A DNA stretch of 63,981 bases, filler included, from Stramenopiles sp. TOSAG23-6 (Eukaryota), in NCBI GenBank assembly GCA_900128565.1. It is 3 parts of 3 records of this genome, joined end to end, with 100 filler letters (N's around TTAATTAATTAA, not from the genome) between each part and the next. Parts side by side here need not be neighbours in the genome. Positions count along the whole stretch, not along the records: positions 1 to 25,473 come from LT635996.1; positions 25,574 to 50,863 come from LT635997.1; positions 50,964 to 63,981 come from LT636179.1. One strand, 5' to 3'. The notes beneath the pieces are model-generated. The model ran no database searches. It was not told the DNA's origin and saw only the letters and a program-made list of their open reading frames with translations. A program made the position numbers and the translations under genes. Positions 1-63,981 of this stretch are shown here, piece after piece (positions within the stretch are counted from its first letter, which is position 1; the number at the start of each line of letters is the position of its first letter).

Positions 1-92
1 TTTGGAAAAATATTTCAAAAAAAAAATCGTTAGGTACAAAATTTCGTACGAAAAAAAAATTATATAAAAAATTGAAAAAAAATAAAACATAC
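1..92 (-). mobile_element. Introner-type intron (partial)
   Basis: Minus strand reads AT|GTATGTTTT...CGTACGAAATTTTGTACCTAAC...GAAATATTTTTCCAAA, truncated at the window edge. Confidence 0.85.
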
Positions 93-999
93 ATAAACCC
101 TTGACAGAACAGAAAGATATATTCGATCGGGATAAGATTTCACTGAATTTATCAATAAATGGTTTGCCCATTGTTGCCGCAGCAGCAATGTATTGTACGT
201 GGTGTGCACTTCTTTTGCGTTTAGCCTGTATACGTATCGGTTTTAGGATTTTTTCCAACTCATCAGAAAACCCAAATTCAGAATCCATGAGCATGTCAGC
301 TTCATCAAAAACTACATGAGATATGTTACTAAAATAGACGTCACCATCTTCGTAATGTTCTAATAGCCGAGCAGGTGTAGCTATAACTACGTCGACACGT
401 TGAGAAAGTGCAATTTTTTGAGGTTTATATTTTGCACCTCCAAGAACAGAAGCAACATATAATTTATTCTGTCCTCCGTTTTTTTTTCTCTTTTTCTCTT
501 TTAATTTTTGATCAACTGTAAAGTGACATAATCGCGATATCGTCTTTGCCACCTGACTAACTTGTTGGGCTAATTCCCTTGTTGGAACAAGAATAAGAGC
601 TCGAGGTTTCTTTGCCTGTGCCAAACTACCTGAACGAGAACGTTCAAGTAAAGTTTCCATGAGAGGAGTTAAATATGCCAAGGTCTTCCCAGTCCCAGTG
701 GGTGCAGAACAAATAACATCTTCACCAGATAAAATACGAGGTATAACTTGATCTTGTATTGGAGTGGCGTGTTTCACGCCAATATGTTTTAAAGCTGACT
801 GGAGACTTGGAGTTAATCTTCGTAATATTGCACCTGTTACTTCTTCTGCGGCATCTTTCTCACATTGCTTTGTAGAAGACACTAGAGGTTTCGCAGAAAG
901 AACTTGGCGAGATGAAGAAATAGATCTATTGAACTGGTATACATTAAAGTATTTTGAATACTTTCCCATGTATGCTACATGTATCCTAAAAGGAATCAT
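93..999 (-). CDS. DEAD-box RNA helicase, 5' exon (gene continues off-window)
   Basis: Manual translation from ATG at 999 gives TPIQ, APTGTGKT, LVPTRELAQQV, IATPARL and VFDEAD motifs. It ends at an introner donor at 92. Not in the ORF track. Confidence 0.9.
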
Positions 1000-1251
1000 T
1001 TCGTGACTGTTTTTGTTCTACTACACTAGTAGTAGTAGTAGTGGACTAATAAGATAGGTTAGAAGGAGGATTTTCAAAGAAACTCAAAAAAATGAACTGA
1101 ATCGAAAATTGAAGCAAAAATAGCTACGGTACCGTATACCGTATATATAACATATTTTGATATTTAAGACTTTATTCATATTTTCAAATTTCTAGCAAAA
1201 CAAATAATTCACATAAAATATAAGCAATATTCTTCATTATATTTTTTGGAC

Positions 1252-2253
1252 TCAAAAATTTCGATCGAAATCGCTTTTAAGATAACCAGAAGATTCTTCG
1301 GAGTGAATAGCAGACTGTGTGGGATGGACCATTGACCGAACCATGAGATATCTTTCACCATAATATCGTTTGTCTCCCCATTTTAGATTCCAAAAAGGTG
1401 GTGGTTGTTCTAGTTTCTCATAGATGGGGTGGTCGTTATCATATTCATCATATTTCACCGTTTTATACACTGTCTTTGGAGTTTTCACCTCATTATAATT
1501 GAAAGTGTACAAATCAAAGCCAAAGGGGCCCTCCCAATAATGAGGAACTTCGTGACAATCTATAAAGTATTCAACTGAACTTGATATAGCAAAGTGACGC
1601 ATTTTGTCTACATTAACGACAAATGGAGACGGTGAATGCAAGACTGCTAGTGCCTTCAAGCTTTCTTTAGGTAATCCTGATCTGTTTAACTTTAAAAAGT
1701 CCAGAATTTTTTTTTCATATGGACTGTTTTTGAATGGTTCATCCTTAACGATAAAAAAGTCCGTAATACATTCGCCAAGTCCATGCGGGACGCAGGAAAA
1801 ATTGGAAGTTCTGTTATTGGGTTCAAAAGGATACTCAGTTCCCGGAACATATAACAACGTTATATCTTCTACGCACTTCTTACCTTGGATTTTTTTCAAG
1901 TATGCAATGCTATAAATTTTAAGAGTCTGTTCATGATTCTTCCTAGAATGATAATCAATGATACTATTGAATGCATCATTAAATGTAAGAGCAACGACGC
2001 TATAAGTTATTTTCGCATTCGCGTAGATAAAATTCACAACACAATAATCATGATCTGGGATTTCTATTCCATCGTAAAGGTACAATCTTTCCAGACCTTT
2101 ACAAGTTTGACGCAATCTCCATATTGCCACAGGGTCAAGAAACGTAAGTAAAAAACGAATAATGTCGGGCGCATGAATAGATACACCGTTAGCTTTCAAA
2201 AATGGAAATATGTCATCCACTTTCGTGCGTTTTGCAACTTTGTCTTTATTCAT
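1252..2253 (-). CDS. Hypothetical protein with N-terminal F-box-like motif
   Basis: 333 aa ORF; APDIIRFLLTFLDPVAIWRLRQTCKGL resembles the F-box consensus. Confidence 0.6.
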   Translation of the reverse strand: MNKDKVAKRTKVDDIFPFLKANGVSIHAPDIIRFLLTFLDPVAIWRLRQTCKGLERLYLYDGIEIPDHDYCVVNFIYANAKITYSVVALTFNDAFNSIIDYHSRKNHEQTLKIYSIAYLKKIQGKKCVEDITLLYVPGTEYPFEPNNRTSNFSCVPHGLGECITDFFIVKDEPFKNSPYEKKILDFLKLNRSGLPKESLKALAVLHSPSPFVVNVDKMRHFAISSSVEYFIDCHEVPHYWEGPFGFDLYTFNYNEVKTPKTVYKTVKYDEYDNDHPIYEKLEQPPPFWNLKWGDKRYYGERYLMVRSMVHPTQSAIHSEESSGYLKSDFDRNF

Positions 2254-2641
2254 AATGTGCTCGTATGAAATTCACCTGGTAGTTCTTTTGCTTGTACGTA
2301 GTATCTTACAAATCCTTCCCACAAATTACTTGACAAGTCGCAAAAAGTTGATCGACTTCGGACTTATAAAGTCTGTAACGACTTTTTCGGGACTTTTTCG
2401 GATTTTCTTTTCGGAAAATTCACTCAAGATGTACAACACAAAAACTTGGTAGATAATATGATTTATATTCAAAATAGTTTTCACGCCAAGTGAATATGAA
2501 TATAATTATAGTCATATTTAATAAAGTCACTATCTACAACGGCAAAATGACCACTTTTGTCAATGTCTACTGAATAAATCATTGGAGAGTGAAGTACTAA
2601 AAATATATGTTCTCAATAATTCCTTCTAAAATCTTCTTTTG

Positions 2642-4518: not shown

Positions 4519-5646
4519 ATGGGTAGTTCAGTATCAACACCACCTATAAGCAAGGCAACAAAAGATCTCATTGATCCTCTACAAATGACAGGAAAACATG
4601 TAAAAAGATTATATCAAGTGTTTAGAAACGCAGATAACGATAGAACTGGTTCCATTGATTATAACGAATTCTATGAATTAGTCGGTGAACGACAGTCAAT
4701 TTTTGCAGATGAAATATTTCGAATTACTGATCTAGATAACTCAAACAGTCTTGACTTTAATGAGTTCATACATGTACGTTTTCATTATGAATTTCAAATT
4801 TATTTATTTTTCATACGAAATTTTGTACCTAACAAAACAATTTTGAGTGTTGTTTTTTTCACAATACATGTCATTTGTACATTCAGTCTTTTCGGTAAAG
4901 AAGAAATTCTAAAATTCTGTTTTTACATCTTCGATAAGGATAAAAATGGTTATATAGAAAATGAAGAATTGCTTGATTTGGTATCAGTCTTGCACGGAAC
5001 AATGGGTCAAAATCCTAGTGCAAACATCGAGCGGGCGCTGAAAGACTTCGAAGTTCGTTGCGGTAATATGATGGGTCGAAAAAAGGTGACTTTTAAAGAA
5101 TTTGTTTCGTTAAACACTCAAGTACCTCAAATATTTTATCCGGCTTTTAAATTACAGCAATCAATACAAAGAGCTTGTCTTGGCACTAATTTCTGGGATT
5201 CGCGAAAACGTTTACGTAAGGAAGACCGGGATAAACAAAAGAAAGAAAGAGAATGGCTTTCAAAAGCTGCTGATCGGAAACAAACAAAGAAGCAACATTT
5301 AGAGTTGAAAAAACGATTTGGGGTGATTAGGTACCATTTAATGCCTTGGAAATATGATAGGTGGATACAAATTTTGAATGAAGAAGCTGTAAGTGAAGCA
5401 ATGGGTAAGGCGGCTCGAGATCGTTTTACAAAGAATCGTAAAGATAAAGAGAAGAATTATCATAAAGCTGCATTAAATGCCGAAGGCAGAATAAAGATGG
5501 AAAAAGAGGAAAGAAAGAAGCGGAGGGAAAAAGATAGAGAGAGAGAAATGAAATACAAAAAGAGAAAGGAACAAAAAGGCATAATTAAGAATCAAAAAAT
5601 AAAAAGCAAAAAGAAGAAGAAAAAAAAACGAGGTCAATGGGACTAA
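4519..5646 (+). CDS. EF-hand (calcineurin B/NCS-like) protein, one intron 4774-4869
   Basis: MGSSVS myristoylation-like start; EF loops DNDRTGSIDYNEF, DLDNSNSLDFNEF and DKDKNGYIENEEL. Confidence 0.85.
   Translation: MGSSVSTPPISKATKDLIDPLQMTGKHVKRLYQVFRNADNDRTGSIDYNEFYELVGERQSIFADEIFRITDLDNSNSLDFNEFIHVRFHYEFQIYLFFIRNFVPNKTILSVVFFTIHVICTFSLFGKEEILKFCFYIFDKDKNGYIENEELLDLVSVLHGTMGQNPSANIERALKDFEVRCGNMMGRKKVTFKEFVSLNTQVPQIFYPAFKLQQSIQRACLGTNFWDSRKRLRKEDRDKQKKEREWLSKAADRKQTKKQHLELKKRFGVIRYHLMPWKYDRWIQILNEEAVSEAMGKAARDRFTKNRKDKEKNYHKAALNAEGRIKMEKEERKKRREKDREREMKYKKRKEQKGIIKNQKIKSKKKKKKKRGQWD
4774..4869 (+). mobile_element. Introner-type GT-AT intron (96 nt, in frame)
   Basis: CAT|GTACGTTTT...CACAATACAT|GTC. 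Removal gives FNEFIH-VICTF and restores the EF-hand exit helix. Confidence 0.85.
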
Positions 5647-14056: not shown

Positions 14057-15982
14057 ATGCCAAAAGCAAAATATATTCCTAAACTTAGAAGTGGTCGCCG
14101 TGTAGGGGGATCTAGGACACGTTCAGCTCAAAAGAAACTCGATATAGAGAGTAAAAAGGAGGAGGAAGTAGAAGTCAAAAAGAGTTTTTATACGCCAAGT
14201 GTGGCTGCAAAGGAAAGAAAGCGAAAAGAGGCTGAAAATCGAGCTCGTAGAAGACAAAAGATCATTCGTGAAAAGAAACTAAATGCACCTAAAAAGTCCT
14301 ACATAGATTGCCACGGTAAGCATGGAGACGTTAACTTAGGCACACCCAAACCTAATAGTTGGTGGGGTACTCAAATTTCAAAAAAAATGAGTAAACCGAT
14401 GGCAGTACCACGACCTCGACAATTCTTGCGTTGCCGGTGCATTCCTCCCTGTCGTCCTTGGCCAAACTTTGGTCCTTTGTTTGTTTACCCAGGAGAGGAA
14501 ATTAAAGAAAAAAATTACGACGAATATGAGATAGTAAAATATGCAGATCCATTTGCAGAGCAAATTGATGAAGTTACAGATAAACCGAGAGATGAATTAC
14601 AAAAAAATACATCAAATAATAATTCAACGACAGAATTGGCGAAAATCAAAAAAAATACAAAATTAGCGCCTCTTCCTGTGGCTATCCAAAGTCGAGCTGA
14701 ACGATTAAAGAAGGAGATGGATGCAGTTCAAATGGCAGAACGTTTCATTCATGAGAGTAGACTTGGTAATGAGTATGGTGTGATGCAACTAATACGTCAG
14801 AATGTAAATATAGATTGGCAGGGCCGTGATGGTAAAAATGCACTCATGACTGCCGCTCTTCTTGGACACTTGGGCACAGTTCAAATTTTAGTTAAATCTG
14901 GTGCTGATTTGGATCTTGTACGTTTTTCATGATGAATTTCGCATTTAACTTTTTTTGTACCAAATTTTGTAACTAACAAATTTCGATTTTTTGAAATATC
15001 TTTTCAGTGTACATGTAGATATTCAAGATCAGACAGCACTTATACAAGCAGCAGCTCAAGGTCGTTGTGCCACATGCATTTATCTTATCAAAGCTGGTGC
15101 CAAATGTGACAGAAGTGATAGAAATGGTAATACAGTATGTACGTTTTATCATTAATTTTTACCTAAACTTTTTTGTACCAAATGTTGTACCTAAACAAAT
15201 TTCCAATAATAAAAATATTTTTCACAATATATATTCACATTCCCGGGCAAATCAAGATTGTTTAGCAAAAGTTACTGCACTTTTGACTAGGTTAGAAGGC
15301 CGTCGGCGAGAGTCTGCTACATGTGCGTTTCCATCATGAATTTGTTTTTTTGTTTCGTACCAAATTTTGTACCTAACAAATTTTACAAAAAAAATATGTT
15401 TCACAATACATTTGTTCAGAAACATTGGCGAAGGTTGAATGGTCAACGAATACGGAAGGTAATGGTTGCAGCTATTGCAAAAGCAAAAGTAGATCTTCTA
15501 GAAGCTGCAATTAATACACAGCGATGGGAGAGAGGAAGACAAGCAAGGCTTGTGTACGTTTTCATCAGGAATTTCAAAAACAAATTTTACCAAATTTTGT
15601 ACTTAACGAATTTCAAACTTTAAATATTTTTTCACAATACGTGGCTGAGGGATTACGTGAAGAATATAGAAAAAGGGTTAAAGCTCGCTATTACGTTACC
15701 ATTCGTATTCAATCAATCTTTCGAAGACAAAGAGCAACTATGGTTGTATCACAAAGGAGAATTGCATTTAACATGAGTGCATTGAAAATTCAGAGATTAC
15801 AACGTGGTAACCGAGCAAGAAAATATTTTCGGGAACTCTTGACGTTTGATAAGAAACAAAAGCAAGTTGCTCGAAAGAAAGCAGCAACTTTAATGTGTCC
15901 GATTGTTCGTGGTTATTTTGGTCGCCAAAAAATGAAAAAGTTATTTGGTTATGTGTATATCAAAGAAGACGATTGGGTTTGA
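14057..15982 (+). CDS. Ankyrin-repeat + IQ-motif protein, four introns
   Basis: Splicing 14918-15014, 15139-15232, 15323-15411 and 15554-15642 joins the ankyrin repeats (GADLDL-VDIQDQTALIQAAAQG) and IQ motifs (SATFVQKHWR, IRIQSIFR, LKIQRLQRG). Confidence 0.85.
14918..15014 (+). mobile_element. Introner-type GT-AT intron
   Basis: CTT|GTACG...GTACAT|GTA restores the ankyrin consensus spacing. The nearby TTTCAG is out of frame. Confidence 0.85.
15139..15232 (+). mobile_element. Introner-type GT-AT intron
   Basis: AT|GTACG...CACAATATAT|; core TGTACCTAAAC. Confidence 0.75.
15323..15411 (+). mobile_element. Introner-type GT-AT intron
   Basis: AT|GTGCG...CACAATACAT|; restores the IQ motif. Confidence 0.85.
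15554..15642 (+). mobile_element. Introner with GT duplication (GT-GT, or GT-AC if shifted 2 nt)
   Basis: CTTGT|GTACG...CAATACGT|GGCT gives RLVAEGLREE. Confidence 0.8.
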
Positions 15983-19517: not shown

Positions 19518-19794
19518 TAGTAGTATTTTGCGTCTGAGTGTTTGTTGTGCTTGAATTGGCTACTAGTACTAATTATAATGAGTAGATCTACTGTATTTGT
19601 AGTGTAGTAGTAGGAGAGTATACTATCTTCAAATCCACCATCCGACGGTTATATTTCTTTTAACCGTTACGTACGACTTATAATAGACGCTTTCATTTCT
19701 TTCCTATTTTGTCCACTTCGTTGGTACTACTACTACGTTGTTGAAGCAAAGAATATTATTCAAGTAGTTGCTGTGGGTAAAAGCGCTCGATAAT

Positions 19795-22700: not shown

Positions 22701-23099
22701 GCAAAAATAGGTTTAATTGAACGTCGTTTTTGTGGTGTGAATGGTGCTAATTTTAGACAATACATGCTTCGTATACCAAGAAATTCCTCATTTTGGACGA
22801 ATTCTTCTATACTACAATCTTCATGTACGTTTTTCTCATAACCAATTTTCGAATCAAGAATATTTTTTTAATATGTTTTATTTTTTTTTTNTATGAANTT
22901 NTTTTTNATAACGAAATTTTGTACCTAACAAATTTAAATATTTTTTTTTGCAATATTTTTCCAAAATACATCTTCCTTTAATTACAAAACTAGCATGCTT
23001 ACGTTTCATGATGTTTTAAATGGATTTCAGAAAACAATGAAAATACTTCGTCTTCATTTGGAAAAAAGAGATACAAAATTAGGTCAAAAGTCCGATTAA
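19795..23099 (+). CDS. Large coiled-coil repeat protein, intron 22825-22971
   Basis: ATG at 19795; repeated KYQSDIDAL.KAMQDQK units; frameshift at an n (21754); last exon ends TAA at 23099. Confidence 0.75.
20950..21790 (+). repeat. Coding tandem repeats, approx. 120-135 bp unit
   Basis: Near-identical copies of CAATCTGATATTGATGCTCTT...AAAGCTATGCAAGATCAAAAAC. Confidence 0.85.
22825..22971 (+). mobile_element. Introner-type GT-AT intron
   Basis: AT|GTACG...CCAAAATACAT|; the reading frame continues to a stop codon. Confidence 0.8.
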
Positions 23100-23554
23100 T
23101 AATGTTTGATTGGTTTGTTTTATGGGAAATTATTATTGAAAGAGAAAAAAGTAAAAGAAATTATGGAAAAAAAAATGTTAGGTACGAAATTTACTACGAA
23201 AAAAAAAAGTAAAAGAAAGTAATGTATAGGAGTATAAAAAAAAGATTCAAAAAAATAAACTACTATATAAATTTAAAACTACATATTTTCAATCATATAA
23301 ATTAGGTTATTTATAAAGACAAATAATAGAAATTTCGTAAATTGCGTATTTTACTTGACAATTTAAATTTGTTGATTGTTGATGTCAACAATGTCGAGTA
23401 CGATTATTCATCGAGATTCGTTAGGGTTAGGGTTTCCGGCCAATAAAAAAAGTAAACACAATCAATCAAATCGAAATCGACCGTAGTCGAAGAGTCTCAA
23501 GAGTCAAGACTTAGTCTCTTGTTGAATCCTCAAAATCCTTTCTTGTTGAATATA

Positions 23555-37254: not shown

Positions 37255-37745
37255 TGAAAACAAATTATAAAGACTTTAATGAAATGACTTGTAATATTAA
37301 TATTATTGCATGTACAAAAGTTTGGGATGCCATTTTAATCTATAATTATATAATTATATAATTATATAATTATATGTGACCGAAAATATATTCAATATTG
37401 AATATTCCTTGAATGTCATTTTCTTCGACGTGATTTTTGACAGCTACCTGACACACACGTGGCACTTTTTCAAATATTCAATTTTCAGCAAGAGCATTGG
37501 AATGTTTTTCATACGAAGTTTTGTACCTAATCATTTGCTACTACTAAAGATTCCGAGAGCTGTCAAAAACACAAGTTAGCTACTACAAAGATTCCGAGAG
37601 AGATTCCTTCCTTGACAAAGCCAAGTATTAGACCTTAGTACGCCAAATAACAAGGGGATTACCCTTGTAGGAATCAAGTCAAAAGTGCAATTGGACTACT
37701 TGAAACACTATATGATACATACCGAGAGTACAAAAAGTAACAGCA

Positions 37746-39140
37746 ATGTCACGTACAATTAATATATTTGTATTTCTTTTTGCAATCTTATATTCCGGCA
37801 TTTCTCCTTGTTGCTCCGCAAATCAAAGAAGAGCAAGAAGGGCTGTACATAAAACTGCGCTTAAAGTTGCAAAACGTAATATCCGTCACAAACAGAATGC
37901 ACTTCTTGGTTCTCCTCGAATGAATGGTCAAACGGTTGCTTCCCCTAGCCCTAGAGTAAATAATAGTGTTGATAAAATTCTCTCTCCACATTCTACAAGT
38001 AAAAAGAATAATTTTCTATCGAAACTTGCCGTAAAATTTCATAAACGAAAACGTCAAAAGAAACGTATTGCTTCTCCTCGTTCTCATCGATCTCCTCGAT
38101 CTCCTCGATCTCCTCGATCTCCTAGACTGACAAATATTTTACCTACGAAAGTAGATGATACTACTGAAATAGATACATTTACTCATCAAAATCAAAACAG
38201 TGGTGTTGATGATCAAAACCAAACCAGTGTAAGTTATCCCAAAAACATTGAAGAAACATCTCAACTACATCCAAATGACGTCATTGTTGAAAATGTACCA
38301 GTAGTACTACCATCAACAACAACAACAACAACTGCAATGACTAATAAAGACCTAAAAAATGAATTGGAGATACAGCCGAAAGACGTTGTAGTGACAAGTC
38401 ATTCAAATATTGTTCGTGTACGTTTTTTATCATGATTTTTTTTTATATGAAATTTCATACCTAACATTTTTTTTATCATGATTTTTTTTTATATGAAATT
38501 TCGTACCTAACAACACTTTTTTTTTAAAGTGTTTTATCAAGTTTTCATCATTTGATTTTGTTTTCATAGACAATTTCGTACCTAACGTATTTCAAATAAT
38601 ACAAGTATTTCTTTTCACGATACATAATAATGGGGACGTCACTCCCCCAATAACAGAACAAAATGATGAAAAAAATGTAGGTTTTTTTTTTTACTATGAA
38701 TTGTTTTTTTCATACGAAATTTTGTACCTAACAATTTTTTTTAGAATTTTTTTTTGAAATATTTTTTTACAATATTTGATGTTCAATCGAATCACAAAAA
38801 TTCAAATACAACATTTTGGAGTCAAAACAACATTATTTATTTTGGTATAGGTGGTGGTTCTATTCTATTGATTAGTATATATGTTTTTTTTCCTACAAAA
38901 TATTTTGGTAAAAATAATTTTTACCATTTTTTTTTTTATAGAAAATTTCATACCTAACGATTTTTTTACTAACAAAAAAAAAAAAAAAAAAAATATTTTT
39001 CACAATACAAAACTATAACTGTATTTGTTTTGATGCATTCTAATCAAATTAAAAAAGAAAATCGGATTTTATTGGAAAAAAGTAAAGAATTGCGTTTGTC
39101 AGTGACTAATGAAGGTACTGAAGAGTATGCAACTGTATAG
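37746..39140 (+). CDS. Signal-peptide + C-terminal TM protein, three introns
   Basis: Introns 38418-38625, 38677-38777 and 38879-39010 rebuild a TM helix IIYFGIGGGSILLISITITVFVLM; SPR repeats. Confidence 0.7.
38418..38625 (+). mobile_element. Introner with triplicated core, GT-AT
   Basis: CGT|GTACG...three TACCTAAC cores...CACGATACAT|. Confidence 0.75.
38677..38777 (+). mobile_element. Introner, GT-TT
   Basis: AAT|GTAGG...ACAATATTT|GAT keeps the frame. Confidence 0.65.
38879..39010 (+). mobile_element. Introner, AT-AA (non-canonical in either candidate register)
   Basis: AT|ATATGTTTT...CACAATACAA|A lies within the TM helix. Confidence 0.6.
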
Positions 39141-40923: not shown

Positions 40924-42311
40924 TTATATTCTTTTAAAAATTGTTGCTGTTTTACTACTTCCACTACCCTTCATTGAAATTCCTTTTTTACACTTTTTAC
41001 TTTTAAATTTATCTGAAGTCTCAATGAAACCAACAAGACCTGAATCTCCTCTTCCTTTATCTACAACTGCAATGCCATTTAATGTGTCACATTCAATACA
41101 TAGTATAGCTATATGTTCCACTAATTCTGTTGGCATGTATTGTGAAAAAAATATTTTTTATTGTAGTAAAAAAAATATGTACGTAACGTATGGAATTTTC
41201 TATCAAAACAAAAAACAAAAAACAAAAAAATTCTAAATTCTAAATTCATCATGAAAAAAACATACATCCCATCTGAGAAAATATATACGTGAGTTGTTCC
41301 TTGTGGCAATTCTGTATATTCCATCAAATCTCCCTGTGTAAACTTAATAGTACATCTTTTCTTAGGAGTTGGGTTTCCATTATTTTTTTCTACTTTCGTC
41401 TTTGAATGCTCAACATTGACAGAGTTCAATTCTTTTCTAATTATTTTTTCTACTTTAGCCTTTGAAAAATCAACTTCAACAGATTTCAATTCAATACCCA
41501 TGGAAAAACTATCAACCGTTGAGAGACCAGGTAAAATAGATGCTGCTATAACAGCATCACCAGTACCAGATCCTAAATCAACGAAACCTTGAATTTTATT
41601 CTCTTCAACTTTATTTTGTTTGTTACATGGAAGATGATCCAATCCAAGAGCTTCAAATATTGTTTTAAAACTTCTTGTAGAAAGTGTCCCAGACATACCT
41701 TGTTCAAGAGATGAAAATCTGCGCTTTCTTGATTTCCTTGACGGTGCATTAGATGTATTTGGTTTTGAGTGTCTTGCATCACTTTTGTTTACATTGAGTT
41801 CTATTATATTTTTTAGATATTTCATATCTGATTTTTTTGTAATATTATAATAACGACACCACGATTCTATATTTTTATGAACTATGGCTTTTGTCTTTGA
41901 ATCTGTTTTTAGTGCTTCATGAATTGCATAATCAAAGTATGTGCCACTATGCCATTTATCACCAGATGTGATTGTAGACCTTTTACGCCAAAATTTCTTA
42001 AAATTTGGACAAAATGGTAAAAGAGACAAAGACGGTACATCTTGAATTGTTGATTCGTAATCTTCATTGCAAGTAGATGTTCGATGGTAGTGGTGAAGCC
42101 ACTGAACACGATAGAATACTTCGTTATCAGGGACATCCTTGTTCCGTAACTCTGCATTGAAGCGAGCAAACTTTTCATCCTGTGAACCTGTCTCTAGCTT
42201 ATCTTCTATAATTGCTGGCCAGATAGATGTTCGTGGACTGGAGTATGCTTTCCCTTTACCATATCGAACAAACACAACTTGTCCAATGACAAAAGGATCT
42301 TTTGGGGCCAT
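40924..42311 (-). CDS. PWWP-like domain + DOT1-like SAM methyltransferase, intron 41135-41265
   Basis: FVIGQVVFVRY...IWPAII; FVDLGSGTG, GIEL and THVYIFSDG-MPTELVEHI. Confidence 0.75.
41135..41265 (-). mobile_element. Introner-type GT-AT intron
   Basis: AT|GTATG...CACAATACAT|G. Confidence 0.8.
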
Positions 42312-45035: not shown

Positions 45036-47082
45036 ATGGAGATACAGGACTTGCCAAATCGCATTACCTTGGAAGATATGCGTGATATACCTGATGTAAG
45101 TGGTTGGGATATTTCAGATGAAGACATTAGTGTTCGGATAGTAGAAAAGATGGAACCTCTCCCAACAAAAGAGTTTCGGCTTTCCCACGGTCCAATATGG
45201 GATGAAGTAGTGGCTGCGTTTGAGAGTTATAATGATGTAGAGCGACGGAATTGGATTTTAGAGTTAAATATTGATCGTACTATTCATTTTGATACTTCAA
45301 AGACCGTAAATGATGAGTCTAGTCAAGTGGCAAAAGAAGCTTTCTCAAGAAGTTATATAATCGATCCTTGGTTATGGAGGTGTAGAAAACTTCAAAAACT
45401 TCGTCTTTGTATATCACCGGTAGGTACTTTAAAGAATGTAAAACCTTGGATTTGTATGTTAAAAAGTTTACAACATTTGGATTTATCTGGAAATGGTATA
45501 GAAGTCTTACCTGAGCATTTGAGTCGTTTGATTCAACTTCGAAGTCTTGACGTTTCGAATAATCATTTGACTACACTTCCCACAGAGCTGAAGTCATTAA
45601 CCTCACTTGTTTCTCTGGATGTTCGTACAAACAAATTAACGTCTCTTGTACCTATTCCATATAGTTTAGTTTGTTTACATGCTGATTATAATCATTTGTC
45701 TTCAATTGTTGACATCTTCAACTGTGAATTAAACAATACAAATGATACAAATGATACAAATGATAAAAAAGATAAAAAAGATCAAATACAATCATTTCGG
45801 ATAGAAACACTTACTCTTACGGGTAATATGTTAACAAATATACCAAGTGAAATTAGTCATTGTACGTCTTTAGTTACATTCAAACTATCTGAAAATAAGA
45901 TTGAAAATATGTATGTTTTTTTTTTTTCAATTTTTTATCTAAATATTTTTTTTATAGTAAATTTTGTACCTAACAAATTTTCCAAAAAAAAAAAATTTCA
46001 CAATATATTTGTTTTGAACTTGGCCTTTTAAGTAAGAAATTAAGACATGTTGATTTTCGTAATAATTTGATACAAGATAAAAAAATACTTAAAATGGCAA
46101 ATAAAGCATCTTTGAATGGTGCAAGAGATTTAGTTGTGTTTTTGAAATTTTTAGCAAAATCGATAAAAAAAAATCAAAAAAACAAAAAAAATAAAAAAAA
46201 TAATACAAAAAAAAAAGTAGAACAACACGAAATCACTCCTGAACAAATAGAACAACGTAAACAAAAAGAACACGAAATATTACTATTACAGTTAGCGCGT
46301 GAAAAAGCTCAAGAAATGGAAAGAATTAAACGTAAAAAAGAAAAAATCGAATTACAAAATAAAATGAGTCAACGTAAAAAAGAAAAAAAAGAAGAAAATG
46401 ATCTCAAAGAAAAACAAATCAAACATCGTCGAAATCTTCGCCAAGAAAATCGTACGAAACAAATGTATGAATTATTTTTTTGAAAATTCAAAATTTTTTT
46501 TTTTATAGTAAATTTTGTACCTAACAAATTTTTTTAGAATTTTTTTTGAAATATTTTTTCAAAATTTATACAGTTATTAGCTGAGAAGAAAAAGGAATGG
46601 AATGCTCTTTCTAAAAAAGAACAAACTCAAATTTTAGATGTACAACAAAAAAAAGAGGAAGAAACAAAAATGATTAATGAAATGTATGTTTTTTCATTAT
46701 GAATTTTTTTTNTTTTTTTTTTTTTTTTTCGTACGAAATTTTGTACCTAAACCTAAAAGATTTTTTTTTTTTTTTGAAATATTGTCCAAATATAAATGAT
46801 TGAAGAGGCACGAAAACAAGCTGCTATATCTCAAGCTGAAAAAGTTCAATTAAAACGTTTAGCAAAAGAAAAAGAATTAAAACAATCAAAAGATAAACAT
46901 AAAAAACCATTATATATAGTACAACCAAGATATTCTGGTATTGTTACAATGTTTGATTCATCTAGAGGTTTTGGTTTTATTGAAATAAAACACGAAATCA
47001 AAAAAACAGATAGCAGTACAAAAGATTTGTCAAATACAAATTTATTAGGTAGAGAATTGTATAACAAAAATGAATTGACTTT

Positions 47083-47631: not shown

Positions 47632-49399
47632 ATGATGAAACTAAGCATCTTTTTGATAATGCATTTTTTTGCCGTTGTCGTTGCGAGTGGATGCAAGCAG
47701 TGTAATCGATCCCTCACGTGCCTCCCTAGGTCTGCGGAACGGTTTGAGAACGTTGGACTTGTGGAAAAAAGAGGGAAATGGGGTGTTTGGAGTAAACGTA
47801 ATTTCTTCATGGAAGAATGTCCGTGTCCCGATATTGTTCATGGAAGAAGCGAATGCTTATATGTTTATAATACGACACCTTCTGAAGAATTAAGGGGAGT
47901 TTTTATCATTAACAATTCTGACCAAATCACGATGGAAATGTCCAAAAAGTCTCGTAAACATTTACTATCGCGGCTGTCTCCTCGAAAACATGTCATCACT
48001 ATTATCTCTGATGAATTTATTTCTACACATGGAGACGAGACAAATAAAAAACTTGAATTATCATTCGAAAATGATGCGTTGAAACAAAATTTTGTTTCAG
48101 AAATGAACAGTAAATTATCACTCACAGAGGAAGAAAGAGAGACGTGTAAAGTTTTAGATGCACAACCATATGAACATAATCGCTTACAGAAGGATTTGTA
48201 TGCCCGATGTATGCATGATGAGACATTTCTTTATGCCATGGCAAAAGGTAATAAGTTTACACGTGCTAATTCTATACTATATAAAGATATTTGTGATTTG
48301 GTGATTGGTCACGTTCCACAAAATATTGAGCTCTGCTCAGAAAAGATTAGAAAGAACATAGAATTCTGTATGGAGCAATACCAAAAGAATCATGGCATAT
48401 TTAGTAAACTTTTACCCGAGATGCGAGAACAAATTTACGCCGAAGAAACAAAGAAAGATAAAAAAAACAGTGCTATAATATTCGAAGAACAATACAAAAA
48501 ATATAAGTCTTTAACATGTTCAACACAAAATTTTAAAATTGCTCGACAAGCAGTTAAAAACGATGGTTTACTACTTGATAAAGCAGATAAATTCTTTACA
48601 AAATGCGGCCGTCAAGGTCAAAGATTTTTGAATAGTGTGCAGAATTCATCTCTAACTTTCAGTGGATATAAAGTAATCGAATATGAAGCTGTTGAAAATA
48701 ACCCAGAGGCAATACAATTTGTCCATCCTGATTGTTCTAATTTTTACGAGAGATTAGCTGGCAAGGCGATTCGATGGAGTTACAAAAGTATAAAACATGT
48801 GTATCGATATAGTAGTTGTCCAGACCAATGTGAAAGTCTGATGAATAATTTGTTTCATATAGAAAGTCATCATATGGCTTGGGCTTATCAAAAGTTATCT
48901 TTTCCTTTATATGCATTGAAACATATCAAAGGCTCCCCTTGTGAGAAACATCTAAGAGCCATGTATGTTTATATGAATTTCTAATTTAATATTTTTTCAT
49001 ACGAAATTTTGTACCTAACGAATTTTTTTTTGAAATATTTTTTCACAATACATTTATGAGAAACATCTAAGAGCCATTTATGAAAGCCAAGGAATAAACT
49101 GCCCAATTGATTACTCGCATTCATCTTATCCAAATGAACCAAAACTACAAAAAACGTTTTATGAAAAAGTAATTGATTATTCAATTGAAGAGGAAAAAAA
49201 AGAAAAAAAAATCAAAAATCAAAAACAAAAACAAAAACAAAAACAAAACACATATATTTCATATATTCCAAAGGATGTGTATGAAAAAATTTGGCATTGC
49301 ATGTTATCTAACAATCCTACACGTATCAGAGATATGAACCCAAAAGTGTATAAAGAATTTTACAAAACAAAATTGAAATTATACCGAACATACTTATGA
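47632..49399 (+). CDS. Predicted secreted protein with DUF4116-like repeats, intron 48963-49053
   Basis: Signal peptide; AVKNDGLLL and AVENNPEAIQFV; the second exon is open to TGA at 49399. Confidence 0.65.
48963..49053 (+). mobile_element. Introner-type GT-AT intron with adjacent empty-site copy
   Basis: Interrupts the first of two tandem 24-bp units GAGAAACATCTAAGAGCCATTTAT. Confidence 0.88.
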
Positions 49400-49571: not shown

Positions 49572-50750
49572 TTATATACGTAATATGCTCTCAAGGTGTT
49601 GCTGGTCATCACCTAGATTCCAAATTTCATTCATTTTATAGAGAGGGTTTGTGTGCTCAACAATTTTAAGAAATATGTTCCAAAATCCCATTTGAAGCAA
49701 AATGTCGAATCTGCAAAAAGAGTTCATCCTCCTCCTCCTCCTCCTCCTCTTTAGTATTAATGTATTTTGGAAAAATATTTCAAAAAAAAATTCGTTAGGT
49801 ACAAAATTTCGTACGAATAAAAAATTCGATTTTTTTGTAAAAAAAAAAAATAAAACATACATTGATCTAGCTAGCCTATATACTAGAATCGTATCTTCTT
49901 TTAGCATTACTTGTATAGATCTTTTTACAACATTTTCTTTATCATAAAGATTATCTATATATTAAACAAGAAAGTCAATCAATTCAATAATATGGTAACA
50001 AAGAATATCCTACCTCTTTCTTCTCTGTTTTCCTTTACAATATTGTATCTGTCGCTCATAACAGATTATTACCCTTCTTCTTCTTCATGTGTATTTAACA
50101 TTGAACTGATGTAGCTAGAACTTTACCTTCATCTTCTCTCTGTGTAGTTGACAGTTTCATTCGATGTTTTTCCCAACCTGTTTTTGCAATTCTTTCAAGT
50201 TTTGTTTTCATTAATGTCCATTGATCTACTTTCACAAATGTACTAAATATAAATAAGAAACTTTTATGATAATCATCAATATTTTTTTGCCCTTTTGAGA
50301 TACATTTTTTCATTTTTTCTATTTCTGTATTTATTTTTTGTACATGTATTATAACATAATATAGCATTTCATCAAAAAATAAATTTAAAATTCATAATGG
50401 AAAATAAACATTTGAAAAAAATTTAAAAAAAAATTTTGAAATGCAAAAGGAAAAACAAACATCTTTTTTTTTCATTTTCTTCTTTTTCTTTTTTTTTCTT
50501 GGACCTTTTTTTGCAACATTTATATTTTTCAGTAATTCGTTTTTCAAAACACGAAATCTTTCTTTAAAAGGAAACACGAGATCTACTAAATTTGTTGGGA
50601 GATTTTCAACATATATATATTTCAAGATTTTACGAATATCAGCTATACTAAAAATTCCAGGAAATTTCGTATATATATTTTCAAAATATATTTTATATGA
50701 AAATATTTCAAAATAATGTTTTTTGTTAGTTATGAAAAATATACAAACAC
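49572..50750 (-). CDS. Hypothetical multi-exon protein, 5' partial
   Basis: Several minus-strand ORF pieces; clear introner at 49760-49860; other junctions uncertain. Confidence 0.45.
49760..49860 (-). mobile_element. Introner-type GT-AT intron
   Basis: AT|GTATG...CGTACGAAATTTTGTACCTAAC...CCAAAATACAT|. Confidence 0.8.
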
Positions 50751-50863: not shown

Positions 50864-50963
50864 NNNNNNNNNNNNNNNNNNNNNNNNNNNNNNNNNNNNN
50901 NNNNNNNTTAATTAATTAANNNNNNNNNNNNNNNNNNNNNNNNNNNNNNNNNNNNNNNNNNNN
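50864..50963. other. Artificial contig-join linker
   Basis: N run + TTAATTAATTAA + N run. Confidence 0.95.
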
Positions 50964-51056
50964 TTTTTTTACAAAAAAATCGAATTTTTTTTTCGTACGA
51001 AATTTTGTACCTAACAAAAAAATTTTTTTTTTTTGAAATATTTTTCCAAAATACAT

Positions 51057-54993: not shown

Positions 54994-55848
54994 TTATTTT
55001 CTTCGAACTTTTTGGAATTTTTTATTTGACTTTAAACCACTCCTGTCCTTCATCATCCATTCTCTTGCTTGTTGAAGTGTTTCTGGCATTGGATCATTTC
55101 TAGATTTTCTTAAGTGTAACCATTCATGCAATACTTCCATGAATTTTGTAAAAATATTTTCAAAACATTGTTTTTTTTTTGTTAGGTATGAAATTTTGTA
55201 TATAAAAATACATATGAAATTTGATATAAACGTGAAACCGATGACTTACATTGTTTGAAATTGAACTAATAATTCGTTCACAGTACTTTGTTCCACACCA
55301 ACTGTATTTGCAACTCTTTTCTTTGTCTTTCCTTTTATTCCGCGCATATCACTTAACTCACTTGGTGTAAATGCGCTCAAAATGTCCAATTGTTGTTTGA
55401 CTTGTTTAACTTCTTCTGTATTACTGACTCCAGGTAACTTCATACGCCACTTTTGATCTTCCAATGATTGTTCAATTTCATCTTTCCAATGTGCAAGAGT
55501 TAAAGTTTTAACGTTCAAAAGAGACACAATTTGTTGTTGAAATTTTTCATCCATTTTCTTTTCACGACGAGAATCGACTTTACTTTTTAGTTTTCCCGCC
55601 CAACCAGTAAATACACCGGTACTAAATGAACTACTTTGCATTGTATGTATGTATTGTATCATATGGGAATCAGATACGCGTTGAGAATGGCATTGATTGA
55701 TTTGTGAAAAATCTTTCGACAAAGTAAAGGTGACTAGGGAACGACTAGTCACTGCGGATGGGGATAGAACACATCGTTGTACTCTTGTTTGAATACTCTT
55801 TTGTACATTAAACAATTGAGACTTTGAATACAGTAACCTATTCAACAT
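54994..55848 (-). CDS. Mitochondrion-targeted protein with Ffh/SRP54 M-domain-like region, intron 55139-55249
   Basis: Transit-peptide-like N-terminus; ILSAFTPSEL...KTKKRVANTVGVEQSTVNELLVQFQTM-EVLHEWL. Confidence 0.65.
55139..55249 (-). mobile_element. Introner-type GT-AT intron
   Basis: AT|GTAAGT (perfect U2 donor)...CATACCTAAC...AAATTCAT|G. Confidence 0.82.
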
Positions 55849-57655: not shown

Positions 57656-58006
57656 GATTGAATAGTCACTATGAATATACTAGTACTGTATTCAACAGTG
57701 ACTCTGGGAGTATATTACACACAAGTAGTAGTAGTTGTATTAATATGTGTTAGTAGGAAGGAGGTAGGTTAGGCCAAGTAAAAAGTGACGTCGACTGACT
57801 CATTTTTCGCGAAATTGAGAAATTGAGAAATTGTAAAGCAAGTTTGTGCCACAAAATAAGAAGGAAAAAAAGTCAAATCGTTCAAATCGTTCAAATCGTA
57901 TCCAAAATTCAATTGGATACGATTCAGAAAAAGGAATCTCGACAAAGAAAAAGATTTACTGATCAAAACACATCTAATTCAAAACAAGAAGAAAACAAAA
58001 CGTACA

Positions 58007-60302: not shown

Positions 60303-62236
60303 TTAATCGGATACAATTTCCCAATCGTTGGCTTCTACTTTACAATTTATCGGACGCCGAGGTGTGATTTCACCGAATGCATCAAATGACGTTTCTTTTC
60401 CTTGTTTTGTATTGTGTGTAGTAGTAGTAGACGTATTCACTTGTATTTGTGTCAAATCTTGTAATTGTTTAAATTGTTGAATATTATTCTGAGTCTTATT
60501 TTGAACATTATTTTTATCATTATTCTGAAGATTTNTACGAATTTCATTNGTATTTTTTGATTCAATTGTACTAAAATCAATAGCAACACCATCAATAATC
60601 TCATCTGTTAATGTTGATATATTTGACATATTTGTATGTCCACTGGCACCTAATTCAACACTATTGCTTGTATTAGGGTGAGGGTGAAGGTTTGGGTTAC
60701 GTCGAGTTGTTTCAACTGGTAATGGAAAAGGGACTAAAAATGGATGGGAGAGTAATTCTTTCGCTGTTGGTCTATCTCCAGGATTTCTTTGAAAACATTT
60801 CTGAAGGAACTGTATTGGTAAAAAAATATATCATGAAATATTGTTTTGTTAGGTATACAATTTTCATACTNAANTTTTTTTTTNAAAAATNTTGAATAGG
60901 ACATTTCAAACAATAAAGGTTAGGGTTAGAGTTAGGTACATCTTTGGCATCTATACTTAAATGATTCGGTAGAGGAGGACATGTATTTTGGAAAAATATT
61001 TCAAAAAAAAAAAATGTTAGGTACAAAATTTCGTACGAAAAAATAATTCGAATTTGAAAAAAAATTAATCATACATGTTTCTCCTTGTGATGTGAATGTC
61101 TTTTTTTATAGTACCAGTTTTGTGGCACTTCTTTTCCATGTTTTTTTTCGTTTGAATTGTAATAGTCTCCATCATGTATTTTGGAAAAATATTTAAAAAA
61201 AAAAACTTTAAATTTGTTAGGTACAAAATTTTTATAAAAAAATAAATTCGATTTTTTTTTTTTTTTTTTTTTAATAAAACATACATAGATTTCTTTCTCA
61301 GACCACATATTTTCAACCCAGCCCTGAAATCCCAAAGGTTTGGGGTGATAATATCGTCCCCTGCAAGTCTGTGGTTCATTCCAAGCCATACTAGCAATGT
61401 ATTGTGAAAAAATATTTAGTATTGTTGTAAAAAAAATCGTAAGGTACATATTTTTCTATAAAAAAAATTCAAATGTAAAAGTTAGGTACAAAATTTTCTA
61501 TAAAAAAAATTCAAATTTAAAAGTTGAAAACGTACATACAATCTGTCCCACCATTTCCATCAGGAGACGTACATTTCTTAGAATTACAATATTCATAATT
61601 CTTTCCCCTTTTATCCTTATCTTTCTTGCAACATGTGTATGCTGAATGTTTCATTAAGTCCGGCAGAGGTCTTACTGTAAATCCGTTTTCACAAGTCTTA
61701 GGCTCATTCCAGTTGGGATGGGCACAACAGTCAGTTCCACCCTTTCCGTCTGGGCTTGTACAGGCATCAAAAGTACATTTTGGCCCCTTACAACATGTAT
61801 AAAAGCAGCCGCGTAGCTCTTCATTGTATGTGCACTTCTTCTTTTGTTTCTCTTTTGCTGGTCTTGTCTTCACTTTGTAGCCTGATTTACACGTCTTTGC
61901 TTCTCCCCAACCCACTGACGCAATACAATCTGTCCCTCCCCTTCCATTTGGAGACGTACATGCTGATTCTGTACAATGTCGACCATCCNGTTTACAACAA
62001 GTATAAAAAATACTTGGTAATATCTCTACATCATATCCCTTTTTACAAGTTCTGGCTTCACCCCATTCTTTCGGCTTTGCACAGCAATCAGTACCAAAAA
62101 GACCATCAGTACTTGTGCAAGCTGAATTATCCCTTACTCCGTTTTTCTTACATGTATACCAACAGCCATCCGATGATATTATGTCCGCGGATACCACTGA
62201 AATTATAGAAATGAATAATGATACTTTGTTATTCAT
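60303..62236 (-). CDS. Secreted Cys-rich repeat protein, at least four introns
   Basis: Signal peptide; four YTCC...CTSPDGxGGTDC(C/I)A..W.E.KTC units. Introns at 61397-61535, 61174-61284, 60981-61074 and approx. 60810-60890; the 3' part has n bases and a probable homopolymer error. Confidence 0.72.
60981..61074 (-). mobile_element. Introner-type GT-AT intron
   Basis: CAT|GTATG...CCAAAATACAT|GT. Confidence 0.8.
61174..61284 (-). mobile_element. Introner-type GT-AT intron
   Basis: TAT|GTATG...CCAAAATACAT|GAT. Confidence 0.8.
61397..61535 (-). mobile_element. Introner-type GT-AT intron, duplicated core
   Basis: GATTGTAT|GTACG...CACAATACAT|TGCT; an intron-free paralogous repeat lies at about 61915-61940. 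Confidence 0.88.
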
Positions 62237-62561
62237 TTTCTTTGAAACAAATTCTTACCGGTTGTAGTTTACAAATAGAACAAATAGAACACCGACCTGT
62301 GTTTTGATTTGACAGAAAAAAAAATTCTTAGGAGATTTTTGGATTTGGATGAGATTTCGTGTTTCGAACTTTGTTCAAAGTCTTTGAAATTGAAATAGTG
62401 TTTTTCATTTCGACATCATCATCATCATCATGAATTGATCATCATCATTGTGAAAACTCTTGTGTGTTTTTATTTATTAAAAATTGTTGGAAATTCTCTA
62501 GATTCTTCATCACAATTACTCCTAAGCAAAGCAGAGTTTACATTCATTAATTTGAGCCATT

Positions 62562-63895
62562 ATGTTTCCGATTCGAAATGCTGCTTTGAATTTGCAAAGT
62601 GCTACTGCAAATAGATTGTATTGCACCTCTCGGTACTTTTCTTCTGCAGCCTCGAAGCGAGACAAAAAAAAGTTATTCTCAAAGATTCTGATTGCCAACA
62701 GGGGCGAAATTAGTTGTCGTGTCATTGAAACGGCGCGCAAGTTAGGTATCAAAACTGTCGCAATTTATTCTGAACCAGACGCAGATGCAAAACACGTGCT
62801 GATGGCGGATGAGAGTTCTTGTGTTGGTCCTGCTGCATCATCTGAAAGTTATTTAAACATCAATCGTATTATGGAAGTTATCAAAGAAACAGGGGCCGAT
62901 GCGGTCCACCCTGGTTATGGTTTTCTTTCTGAAAATGCTGAATTTGCTAAAGCCCTTGCTAAAGCTGGTGTTGAGTTTATCGGACCAAATGTACGTTTTA
63001 TTTTTTTTTTAAACAAAAAATCGATTTTTTTTTCGTACGAAATTTTGTACCTAAGAAATTTAAGTTTTTTTTTTTGAATATTTTTCCAAAATACATGCCC
63101 ACGGTATACTCTCCATGGGTGACAAAATTGAGAGTATGAGGATTGCCGAAAAAGCAGGTGTAAGTTGTGCTCCACGTTTCGATGGAGAATGTCCTACTGT
63201 TGAGCGTGCGATTGAAATAACAAAAGAGATTGGTGAAAAACTTGGGAATGATGGATGTATTTTGGAATGAATTTCTAATTTAAGTTTTTTTTTCGTACGA
63301 AATTTCGTACCTAACAATTTTTTTTAGATTTTTTTTGAAATATTTTTTCACAACACATATCCCATTATAATGAAAGCTAGTGCTGGAGGAGGTGGTAAAG
63401 GCATGCGAGTCGCTTGGAATGAAAGTGAGCTTGTTGAAGGGTTTCATCTTGCACGTGAAGAAGCTGCTTCATCATTTGGAGATGACCGCATGCTGATACA
63501 ACATTTTGTATGCCCAACGGATGGTAGACATATTGAAATTCAATTAATTGGTGATAAACATGGAAATTATGCTGCTTTTCCAGAACGGGAGTGTTCTCTT
63601 CAAAGACGCAATCAAAAAGTATTGGAAGAATGTATGTTTTTTTTTTTTTTCAATTTCGAATTTATATTTCGTACGAAATTTTGTACCTAACAAAATTTTT
63701 TGAAAAATATTTTTTCACAATACATCTCCGTCTGTTTTGCTTACAAAAGAAACACGAAAAAAAATGCAAGCACAAGCTGTTCAACTTGCAAAATCGGTGG
63801 GTTACTTTTCTGCTGGTACAGTAGAATTTTTATGTGATTATGACCAAAACTTTTACTTCCTTGAAATGAATACTCGATTGCAAGTGGAACACCCG
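62562..63895 (+). CDS. Biotin carboxylase subunit (propionyl-/methylcrotonyl-CoA carboxylase alpha), mitochondrial, 3' partial
   Basis: [48 protein letters not shown] and [13 protein letters not shown]; four introns. Confidence 0.93.
62991..63096 (+). mobile_element. Introner-type GT-AT intron
   Basis: Gives [15 protein letters not shown]; both internal AGs are out of frame. Confidence 0.9.
63257..63358 (+). mobile_element. Introner-type GT-AT intron
   Basis: Gives the conserved G-YPIIMKAS. Confidence 0.9.
63632..63725 (+). mobile_element. Introner-type GT-AT intron
   Basis: Gives the conserved QKVLEE-SPS; the intron contains no AG at all. Confidence 0.92.
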
Positions 63896-63921
63896 GTATG
63901 TTCTTTACTTCAAATTTCACT

Positions 63922-63981
<60 letters not shown>

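Follow-up and report, generated by a model that had tools for sequence, protein, structure and literature searches.

An introner family with a probable AT acceptor in the genome of a marine stramenopile related to MAST-3

The DNA analysed here is a stretch of 63,981 nucleotides (nt) from Stramenopiles sp. TOSAG23-6, called the window throughout, in which genes of unrelated families are interrupted by copies of one short repeat. The window contains three contigs separated by N44-linker-N44 spacers (25474-25573 and 50864-50963), is AT-rich (GC fraction 0.23-0.42 across steps of 2 kilobases (kb)) and gene-dense, with 36 stop-to-stop frames reaching 200 codons or more. Its genes are ordinary eukaryotic ones, including DEAD-box helicases, PI-PLC, LRR, WD40, RRM and ankyrin proteins and a UvrD-like helicase, and Pfam profiles also identified peptidase S15, an SRP54 M domain, a mitochondrial-type L25 and biotin carboxylase. 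Rfam and tRNA scans of the window gave no matches. An intronless DEAD-box protein from the window has its best match (82% identity) in a eukprot coding sequence of a MAST-3 assembly, followed by another eukprot entry (60%), Incisomonas (58%) and then other stramenopiles. Based on these identities, the host is classified as a marine heterotrophic stramenopile related, and apparently close, to MAST-3. Sequencing runs that match the window DNA comprise seawater metagenomes, poly-A metatranscriptomes and three small runs of a coded organism.

A search with an 18-nt core of the repeat returned 37 matches in the window at up to three mismatches, compared to 0.13 expected (100 shuffles, the largest count being 1), and a hidden Markov model (HMM) built on seven clean copies gave 34 matches at E<1e-3. 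The donor octamer GTAYGTTT occurs 29 times, mostly with a branch box downstream. Fixed by eye and by coordinates, the tally comes to 31 complete copies, five cut by contig or window ends and three to four degenerate or non-coding ones, or about 40 in 64 kb. The 31 complete copies, which are spread over approximately 14 genes of unrelated families, are the basis of all flank and end statistics given below. The family was not found in viral contigs (0 loci with the 18-nt core). Core matches at seven metagenome-contig loci were rejected as chance, the HMM match being confined to the core, and four loci in prokaryote genomes, with a single core match each in named bacterial records, were also taken as chance.

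Copies are typically 90-140 bases long, and composite or expanded ones are longer. Written with its flanks, a copy reads exon-AT, GTAYGTTTT, a T-run, TTTCGTACGAAATTTTGTACCTAAC, 35-49 nt and ..AATAC-AT, followed by the next exon. In a finer order, GTAYGTTTT is followed by a variable T/A-rich stretch, by TTTCGTACGAAA and TTTTGTACCTAAC, and by a T-rich tail of 35-49 nt that ends in GAAATATTTTT(C)CA(A/C)AATAC-AT. A branch box resembling TACCTAAC is present in 29 of the 31 complete copies, with a distance to the 3' end of 35-49 nt in 28 of these 29, and the density of AG is 0.012 within copies versus 0.050 across the window. In the copy alignment, the central TTTCGTACGAAA, located immediately before the branch box (for example at 63669-63680), forms a perfect palindrome of 12 nt, which could serve as a protein-binding site or form a small hairpin; GUACGA pairs with UUGUAC beside the branch site in four of eight folded copies. 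Two subfamilies can be distinguished, GTATGTTTTATTTT...CCAAAATACAT and GTACGTTTTCATTATGAATTTC...TTCACAATACAT, and several copies depart from the simple layout, having an internal tandem duplication or being composite with two or three branch boxes. On both strands, each of the 31 complete copies has the same orientation as the open reading frame (ORF) it interrupts. Five of the six contig ends fall inside copies, and the sixth (50863) lies in a poly-A/T tract. No transposase, integrase or reverse-transcriptase family of Pfam matched any of 50 translations of ORFs and exons from the window. The original prediction, made before this analysis from the sequence, had described about 40 copies with a common GTAYGTTTT..poly-T..AT layout, sense orientation of the genic copies on both strands, contig and window ends within copies or poly-A/T tracts and no visible transposase, and in all these respects it agrees with the alignment, the counts and the coordinates.

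Exact removal of the copies is indicated by the reading frames around them. For 24 curated copies, the longest upstream frame was continued after removal of the exact GT..AT length or of one or two additional bases, and the resulting downstream frames were compared. Exact removal gave the longest downstream frame in 20 of the 24 copies (8 expected by chance; P 6.6e-7), and codon phases 0, 1 and 2 were used 8, 5 and 11 times (counted by eye in the same rows). Among the four misses, 61397-61535 and 61174-61284 came out as ties, both of which are settled by RNA. Another miss, 60981-61074, was rejected as a stand-alone intron, as its removal alone opens only 7 codons, versus 168 with a 265-nt composite intron ending in CAG at 60810. 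Further copies found in phase are 30089-30279, 30905-31015, 31131-31338, 31754-31873 and 41135-41265. Protein profiles place the borders at the same positions. Across the copy 63632-63725, the exon up to 63630 matches positions 40-127 of CPSase_L_D2 and the exon from 63728 matches positions 129-188, with the split codon as position 128. The frame directly after the AT end at 15014 matches Ank_4, and a downstream AG at 15018 was rejected as the acceptor of this copy (14918), the frame after it giving no Ank_4 match. The peptidase S15 homolog P0121 aligns without gaps over the junction 24256/24363, where N or I would tell the register and the only homolog found carries T.

RNA and DNA contigs assembled from the environmental runs were placed on positions 60892-63981 only, where stretches without RNA cover are uninformative. 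The RNA contig X8 record 16 (728 nt) covers 61075-61175, 61288-61396 and 61536-61703, and lacks the copies 61174-61284 and 61397-61535; at the second joint 139 nt are skipped, with two bases fitting either side. RNA contig X7 record 9 also lacks the copy 61174-61284 (net 111 nt), and both skips match the predicted copies (111 nt net and 139 nt). The DNA-type contig X2 record 3 (61288-61672) reads through the 139-nt copy 61397-61535, which is missing in RNA and is therefore removed at the RNA level. X2 is taken as DNA because it is the sole run covering the intergenic positions 62334-62951. Thus, the copies are introns that are spliced out exactly at the RNA level, as observed in RNA for two copies and by continuity of frames or profiles for most of the others. 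The RNA runs are also rich in introner contigs (1,341 placed in X7, with bins reaching a summed depth of 22,156 versus approximately 9 on exons), which could be due to transcripts not yet spliced, to excised introns or to carry-over of DNA.

Removal from DNA, as with the internal eliminated sequences of ciliates, or a hairpin-guided non-spliceosomal removal as proposed for the non-canonical introns of euglenids and Amoebophrya, appears very improbable. The direct and inverted end repeats of the copies resemble those of the Amoebophrya elements, as described in the available part of PMC7789003 (all papers cited here by accession were available in part). In addition, the minimum-energy folds of six of eight copies close the intron with a terminal helix of 5-6 base pairs, AUGUAU/AUACAU. 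However, the folding energy is no better than that of shuffled sequences in six of the eight (z -0.96 to +0.50), the consensus RNA structure of the copies has 0 predicted pairs, the DNA-type contig keeps a copy that is missing from RNA, the orientation is strictly sense, and GTAYGT and TACCTAAC are classic spliceosomal signals. It is a speculation from these fold models that the terminal helix, in which AUGUAU combines the last two bases of the exon with the donor, might help to present the odd acceptor.

Pairwise identity between copies ranges from about 72% to 99%, with 95-99% in a young subgroup and 72-92% among the others, so that copies of different ages are present. The contig X2 record 5 (482 nt), whose depth of 5.9 is similar to that of its unique neighbours (7.1), joins 63068-63254 to 63357-63650 without the copy 63257-63358 and with a single AT left. 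It retains 29 nt from the 3' end of the upstream copy and 19 nt from the 5' end of the downstream one, and thus is not a mature messenger RNA (mRNA). Four of the six complete copies in 60892-63981 could be judged in X2: one is absent, and of each of the other three at least the two ends are present. With X2 assigned to DNA by guess, the copy 63257-63358 is polymorphic in nature and the family recently mobile, a case of the presence/absence polymorphism that the original prediction had proposed to look for. The summed contig depth of X2 is 3,371-70,226 over introner bins and about 3-27 over unique bins; it is not a copy number and fits a high copy number. The repeat therefore has the features by which introners are recognised, namely similar introns at non-homologous sites, removal from transcripts and presence/absence of one copy.

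The copies are also clustered, with 17 of 34 neighbour gaps shorter than 400 nt compared to 6.7 +/- 2.1 for random placement (0 of 10,000 trials reached 17), including one short gap that crosses an artificial contig join. The closest copies are at least 170 nt apart, and the median short gap is 251 nt. Four copies lie within 0.8 kb at 14918-15642, while most genes are without any copy. This spacing recalls the nucleosome-linker bias of algal introners (PMC9860276, in the part available). Old, vertically inherited and immobile introns with converged signals would also have strong splice sites, which are conserved in any case, but this explanation is hardly credible here: the similarity covers non-signal parts and reaches 95-99% identity in pairs, one copy is missing from an environmental contig, all three codon phases are in use, contigs break inside copies, and half of the neighbour gaps are short.

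In the GT register, the 31 complete copies start with GT (29 copies), GC (1) or AT (1), and their last dinucleotide is AT in 25/31, AG in 3/31, TT in 2/31 and GT in 1/31. A pyrimidine (C or T) occupies position -3 in 29 of the 31, giving a YAT end analogous to YAG. When the same copies are written as AT..AC, 23/31 begin with AT and 21/31 end with AC, compared to 29/31 and 28/31 for GT and AT(AG). In three copies the aligned terminal position holds TAG, AAG or CAG, and removal up to it keeps the phase; these copies are canonical only in the GT register, which favours it over AT..AC. A GTAYGT donor with a CTAAC-type box is the classic signature of U2-type introns, and U12-type introns have the donor consensus ATATCC, with their branch site near the 3' end. 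A U2-type donor GT(AY)GT and a CTAAC-type branch upstream of a pyrimidine tract were found (GT in 29/31, box in 29/31), and the AG of canonical U2-type GT-AG introns is present at the 3' end of 3/31 copies only. The signals of U12-type AT-AC introns were not found, the donor in that register being ATGTAY and the branch box lying 35-49 nt from the end. Together, the uniformity of GT and AT, the YAT ends, the AG-ending copies and the U2-type signals make GT..YAT the likely better of the two registers, in agreement with the original prediction, in which the AT acts as the acceptor.

The true boundaries of the same introns could alternatively be AT...AC (/ATGTAYGT...AATAC/, with slashes for the intron borders), used by the major spliceosome through compatibility of a first A with a last C or by the minor U12 spliceosome; we consider this unlikely. 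A mirusvirus survey, in its available part, describes one family with enriched AT-AC introns and a WCTAAC branch consensus (PMC12768974). The two-base ambiguity of the RNA joint allows AT..AC boundaries, and an aligner that prefers AT-AC to unknown pairs would assign this label; on the + strand the joint appears as AT..AC, corresponding to GT..AT on the strand of the gene, where AT..AC requires a shift of two bases. The compatibility of A and C as first and last bases is also established in U2-type splicing. On the other side stand the lower uniformity of AT and AC, the three copies that are canonical GT-AG in the GT register only, the dissimilarity of ATGTAY to the U12 donor and a branch box that is far from the end for a U12 intron.

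In the mechanism that we propose, each copy supplies a yeast-like donor GTAYGT, a T-rich tract, the branch box TACCTAAC and a pyrimidine-rich tail ending in ..AATAC-AT. The copy lies immediately after an exonic AT, with its last two bases repeating the last two bases of the exon. As the terminal AT equals the preceding exon AT, excision is scarless and the mRNA is restored to the letter. The major (U2-type) spliceosome would remove GT...YAT, with AT standing in for the AG of other eukaryotes. Antisense copies would not be spliced, so that in a gene-dense genome selection would leave only the sense ones. Overall, the observations are probably best explained by an active introner family with an AT acceptor in the nuclear genome of a MAST-3-related marine stramenopile, with U2-type removal of GT...YAT.

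Several points weigh against this explanation. With AT on both flanks, the mRNA is identical for removal of GT..AT and of AT..AC, and we know of no precedent for a terminal G1...U pairing. Direct RNA evidence covers two copies, in contigs from a 3-kb stretch, with X7 and X8 coming from one study, and the label of X2 ('DNA?') is a guess. The phase of copy 49760-49860 is ambiguous, and copy 31494-31687 is one base out of phase. Furthermore, X8 record 16 departs from the genome at the exon edge 61075 and runs on for 255+ letters. A 12-nt sample of this overhang had no match in the window; the overhang could stem from a chimeric contig, from a join made by the assembler within the repeat 60981-61074 or from a difference between strains. 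The out-of-phase end of 31494-31687 would be accounted for by a homopolymer assembly error or a shifted acceptor.

The flanks of the copies bear on how the family spreads. The 5' flank is AT in 23 of the 31 complete copies at a background frequency of 0.097 (binomial P 2e-17), which is the excess of AT flanks that was predicted, as measured within the window. It is equal to the terminal dinucleotide in 21/31 copies (20 AT/AT pairs and one GT/GT pair, 15554-15642) and unmatched in 10/31, and the AT end is kept in seven copies with GT, TT or TC as the 5' flank. The 3' flank starts with G in 15/31 copies (counted by eye; P 5e-5), giving the target AT/G. Spread as a DNA transposon with a 2-base-pair (bp) AT duplication has, in our estimate, about an even chance of being correct. 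It is consistent with the single AT of the empty site, the GT/GT pair and a degenerate antisense copy between two + genes, and most non-fungal introner families show DNA-transposon marks in the available part of PMC9860276. The 10 unmatched flanks count against it, as does the inverted repeat of only 4-6 nt. A constant duplication and a target preference are not separable, a caveat also stated in PMC9860276 (available part).

Alternatively, excised introns could be retroposed into AT/G sites or be reverse-spliced into such sites of transcripts, followed by reverse transcription and recombination, with the AT being an intron end and a target preference and without any duplication. This route is possible, but we regard it as doubtful. 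It would agree with the sense orientation of every genic copy, the terminal AT retained next to GT, TT or TC flanks, the junction-like AT/G target, the weak inverted repeat and the absence of a predicted consensus hairpin. However, the sense bias is explained by selection alone in a mostly coding genome, one matched pair is not AT (GT/GT), the degenerate copy 23135-23282 is antisense between two + genes, and DNA-transposon marks are found in most non-fungal introner families (PMC9860276, available part). The claims on mobility in the original prediction need some modification. The family had been called a MITE-like introner (miniature inverted-repeat transposable element, MITE): the introner part stands on similar introns, removal from RNA and one absence, and the MITE part is unproven. 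The predicted inverted repeat ATGTAT...ATACAT is real, but it reaches 6 nt only when the flanking AT is counted, the element proper having GTAT/ATAC and the GTACGT subfamily GTA/TAC. As to the AT target duplication, flank and end are equal in 21 copies, but with one matched non-AT pair versus 10 unmatched copies a preference for AT/G targets, with the AT belonging to the element, would look the same. Similarly, insertion is scarless as claimed, the terminal AT repeating the exon AT, whereas the G excess in the 3' flank and the clustering indicate non-uniform landing and make 'any exonic AT' an extrapolation.

Table 1. Copies of the introner family in the window (slashes mark intron borders).
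Position	Strand	Description	Evidence
1..92	-	truncated by window start, DEAD-box gene	HMM
4774..4869	+	complete, EF-hand gene, AT/GTACGT..CAT/	exact removal opens 258 codons vs 13/8 for other lengths
14918..15014	+	complete, ankyrin/IQ gene, 5' flank TT, end CAT	frame after AT end matches Ank_4
15139..15232	+	complete, end TAT	phase test, flank table
15323..15411	+	complete, donor GTGCGT	phase test, flank table
15554..15642	+	complete, flank GT and terminal dinucleotide GT, sole matched non-AT pair	phase test, flank table
22825..22971	+	complete, extra 5' segment, 147 nt	phase test, flank table
23135..23282	-	degenerate, between two + genes, antisense to both, limits approximate	core match
24257..24362	+	complete, peptidase S15-like gene, donor GC, end CTT	homolog P0121 gapless across junction
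24956..25056	+	complete	HMM, phase test, flank table
25225..25329	+	complete, first bases ATACGT, end TAT	phase test, flank table
25395..25473	+	truncated by contig end	HMM; 99% identity to 49760-49860
25574..25626	-	truncated by contig start	HMM
27595..27697	-	complete, UvrD-like helicase gene, flank GT, end TAT	693 open codons
30089..30279	+	composite, two branch boxes, TAG at family's terminal position	218 open codons, in phase
30905..31015	+	diverged, end TAT	in phase
31131..31338	+	composite, diverged, AG/GTATGT..AAG/	in phase
31494..31687	+	long, poly-A/T expansions, predicted end one base out of phase	phase test failed
31754..31873	+	diverged, flank TC, end CAT, CCCTAA repeat inside	in phase
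32072..32178	+	degenerate, without branch box, 3' end uncertain, phase undecidable	
37503..37532	+	fragment, central box match only	HMM E 7.5e-4
38418..38625	+	composite, internal tandem duplication, 3 branch boxes	phase test, flank table
38677..38777	+	complete, donor GTAGGT, end TTT	phase test, flank table
38875..39010	+	degenerate, both ends mutated, apparently non-coding	
41135..41265	-	complete, branch region diverged	69 open codons, in phase
45911..46008	+	complete, LRR gene, end TAT	phase test, flank table
46465..46569	+	complete, end TAT	phase test, flank table
46684..46797	+	complete, end AAT	phase test, flank table
48963..49053	+	complete	HMM, phase test, flank table
49760..49860	-	young, complete, phase test ambiguous	HMM; 99% identity to 25395-25473
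50964..51056	+	3' part only, at contig start	HMM
55139..55249	-	complete, SRP54-like gene, donor GTAAGT, end CAT	phase test, flank table
60810..61074	-	composite intron, end CAG: young copy 60981-61074 and degenerate copy ~60810-60905	168 open codons only on removing all 265 nt
61174..61284	-	complete, absent from RNA contigs (X7, X8)	111 nt net removed
61397..61535	-	complete, internal duplication, missing in RNA contig, kept in DNA-type contig	joint 61396/61536, 139 nt
62991..63096	+	complete, biotin carboxylase region of acetyl-CoA carboxylase-like gene	both ends present in X2 contigs
63257..63358	+	complete, missing from environmental contig X2 record 5	contig joins flanks, carries both neighbours' ends
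63632..63725	+	complete	CPSase_L_D2 profile continuous across junction
63899..63981	+	5' part only at window end, flank CG, GTATGT, poly-T	

Other features of the window include telomere-type hexamers, (CCCTAA)n/(TTAGGG)n, at 30455-30745 within an open reading frame, translating there into N-P-N-P stretches; hexamer runs of this type are also present within three introner copies (31770-31790, 32085-32100 and 60915-60935). The frames 19768-21792 and 21750-22838 overlap (21750-21795) around a single N at 21754, which looks like a sequencing frameshift within one gene rather than an intron. At 39474-40777, open frames overlap on opposite strands (241 codons on - versus 431 codons on +), the + frame being an ankyrin-repeat protein. 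The TrmO-like frame 57134-57679 (-) ends after profile position 50 of 116, with no family copy or obvious intron behind it, and judging from this comparison may be a truncated gene.

Introners with one splice site of their own and the other supplied by the target are already known from Micromonas, Aureococcus, Chrysochromulina, Symbiodinium and others, according to the available parts of two surveys (PMC9860276, PMC12130899), and what is new here is an introner family with a non-AG acceptor. As far as their available text goes, these surveys use annotated introns and list GT, GC, GA and AT as donors and AG and AC as acceptors (PMC9860276, PMC12130899). Our literature search found no paper that pairs introners with GT-AT and none that pairs them with MAST-3; the available parts of the MAST genome papers contained no passage on splice sites, and their supplements may bear on this point. 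Gene finders and introner surveys that assume GY-AG, as do the two surveys cited above, would miss introns ending in AT or mislabel them as AT-AC, leaving genes split or frameshifted when such protists are assembled from single cells or metagenomes. Assemblies are moreover broken by the repeats themselves, as seen at five of the six contig ends in the window.

Few signals of eukaryotic gene expression are as constant as the AG acceptor. If our explanation is true, an abundant class of AT acceptors behind a canonical donor and branch site offers a clean system for studying splice-site choice in the second step, and the target requirement of an introner can fall to two bases. It also extends introners to uncultured heterotrophic stramenopiles. 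On balance, we lean towards a broader picture, in which the major spliceosome of MAST-3-like organisms routinely accepts YAT, one AT-requiring introner family gave rise to practically every intron of a compact genome that is otherwise poor in introns, with probably thousands of copies, and is still moving in wild populations, and related marine viruses whose introns are labelled AT-AC may share this system or carry it. The hosts of such viruses might have the same splicing habit, which we mention as a lead only.

Among known systems, the viral one, the Demutovirales family of mirusviruses, is like ours in being marine, in its AT-AC label and in a branch box of the CTAAC type; its introns sit in viral genomes, and the likeness is by description alone, a lead rather than a link (PMC12768974, in the part available). 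Fritillaria and other tunicates also have non-GT/AG boundaries genome-wide and a modified major spliceosome, but approximately 95% of their introns escape the rule at both ends (PMC13326754, available part), whereas here the donor is canonical and the acceptor alone deviates. The introner elements of Amoebophrya share with our family repeated introns, direct repeats overlapping the borders, inverted end repeats and non-GT-AG boundaries (PMC7789003, available part). According to the same text, they have no consistent terminal dinucleotides, inverted repeats of 8-20 nt and direct repeats of 3-5 nt (PMC7789003). In contrast, the copies described here have a defined GT..AT pair, strong signals at the donor and the branch site and a repeat of 2 nt, and they form no stable hairpin. 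They can formally be written as AT...AC and in this are like the U2- and U12-type AT-AC introns, from which they differ in a donor that is not ATATCC, a branch box 35-49 nt off and a lower conservation of AT/AC than of GT/AT.

The introners of Chrysochromulina sp. likewise have no clear terminal inverted repeat in the available description, but they combine a 4-bp duplication with an AG acceptor, compared to the 2-bp AT here (PMC9860276). Known introner families generally show duplications of 3-9 bp (PMC9860276, available part), whereas the putative duplication here is 2 bp and the inverted repeat 4-6 nt. The nearest parallels are found in Micromonas pusilla and Aureococcus anophagefferens, whose introners are also short, non-coding, intron-creating repeats that insert without a scar in marine protist hosts, carrying one splice site and having the other in or at the duplicated target. 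The introner elements of these two species were reportedly described by Huff et al. in 2016. They are GY-AG introns, whereas the acceptor position here is AT in 25 of the 31 copies, and unlike them, the family described here inhabits a heterotrophic, MAST-3-like stramenopile.

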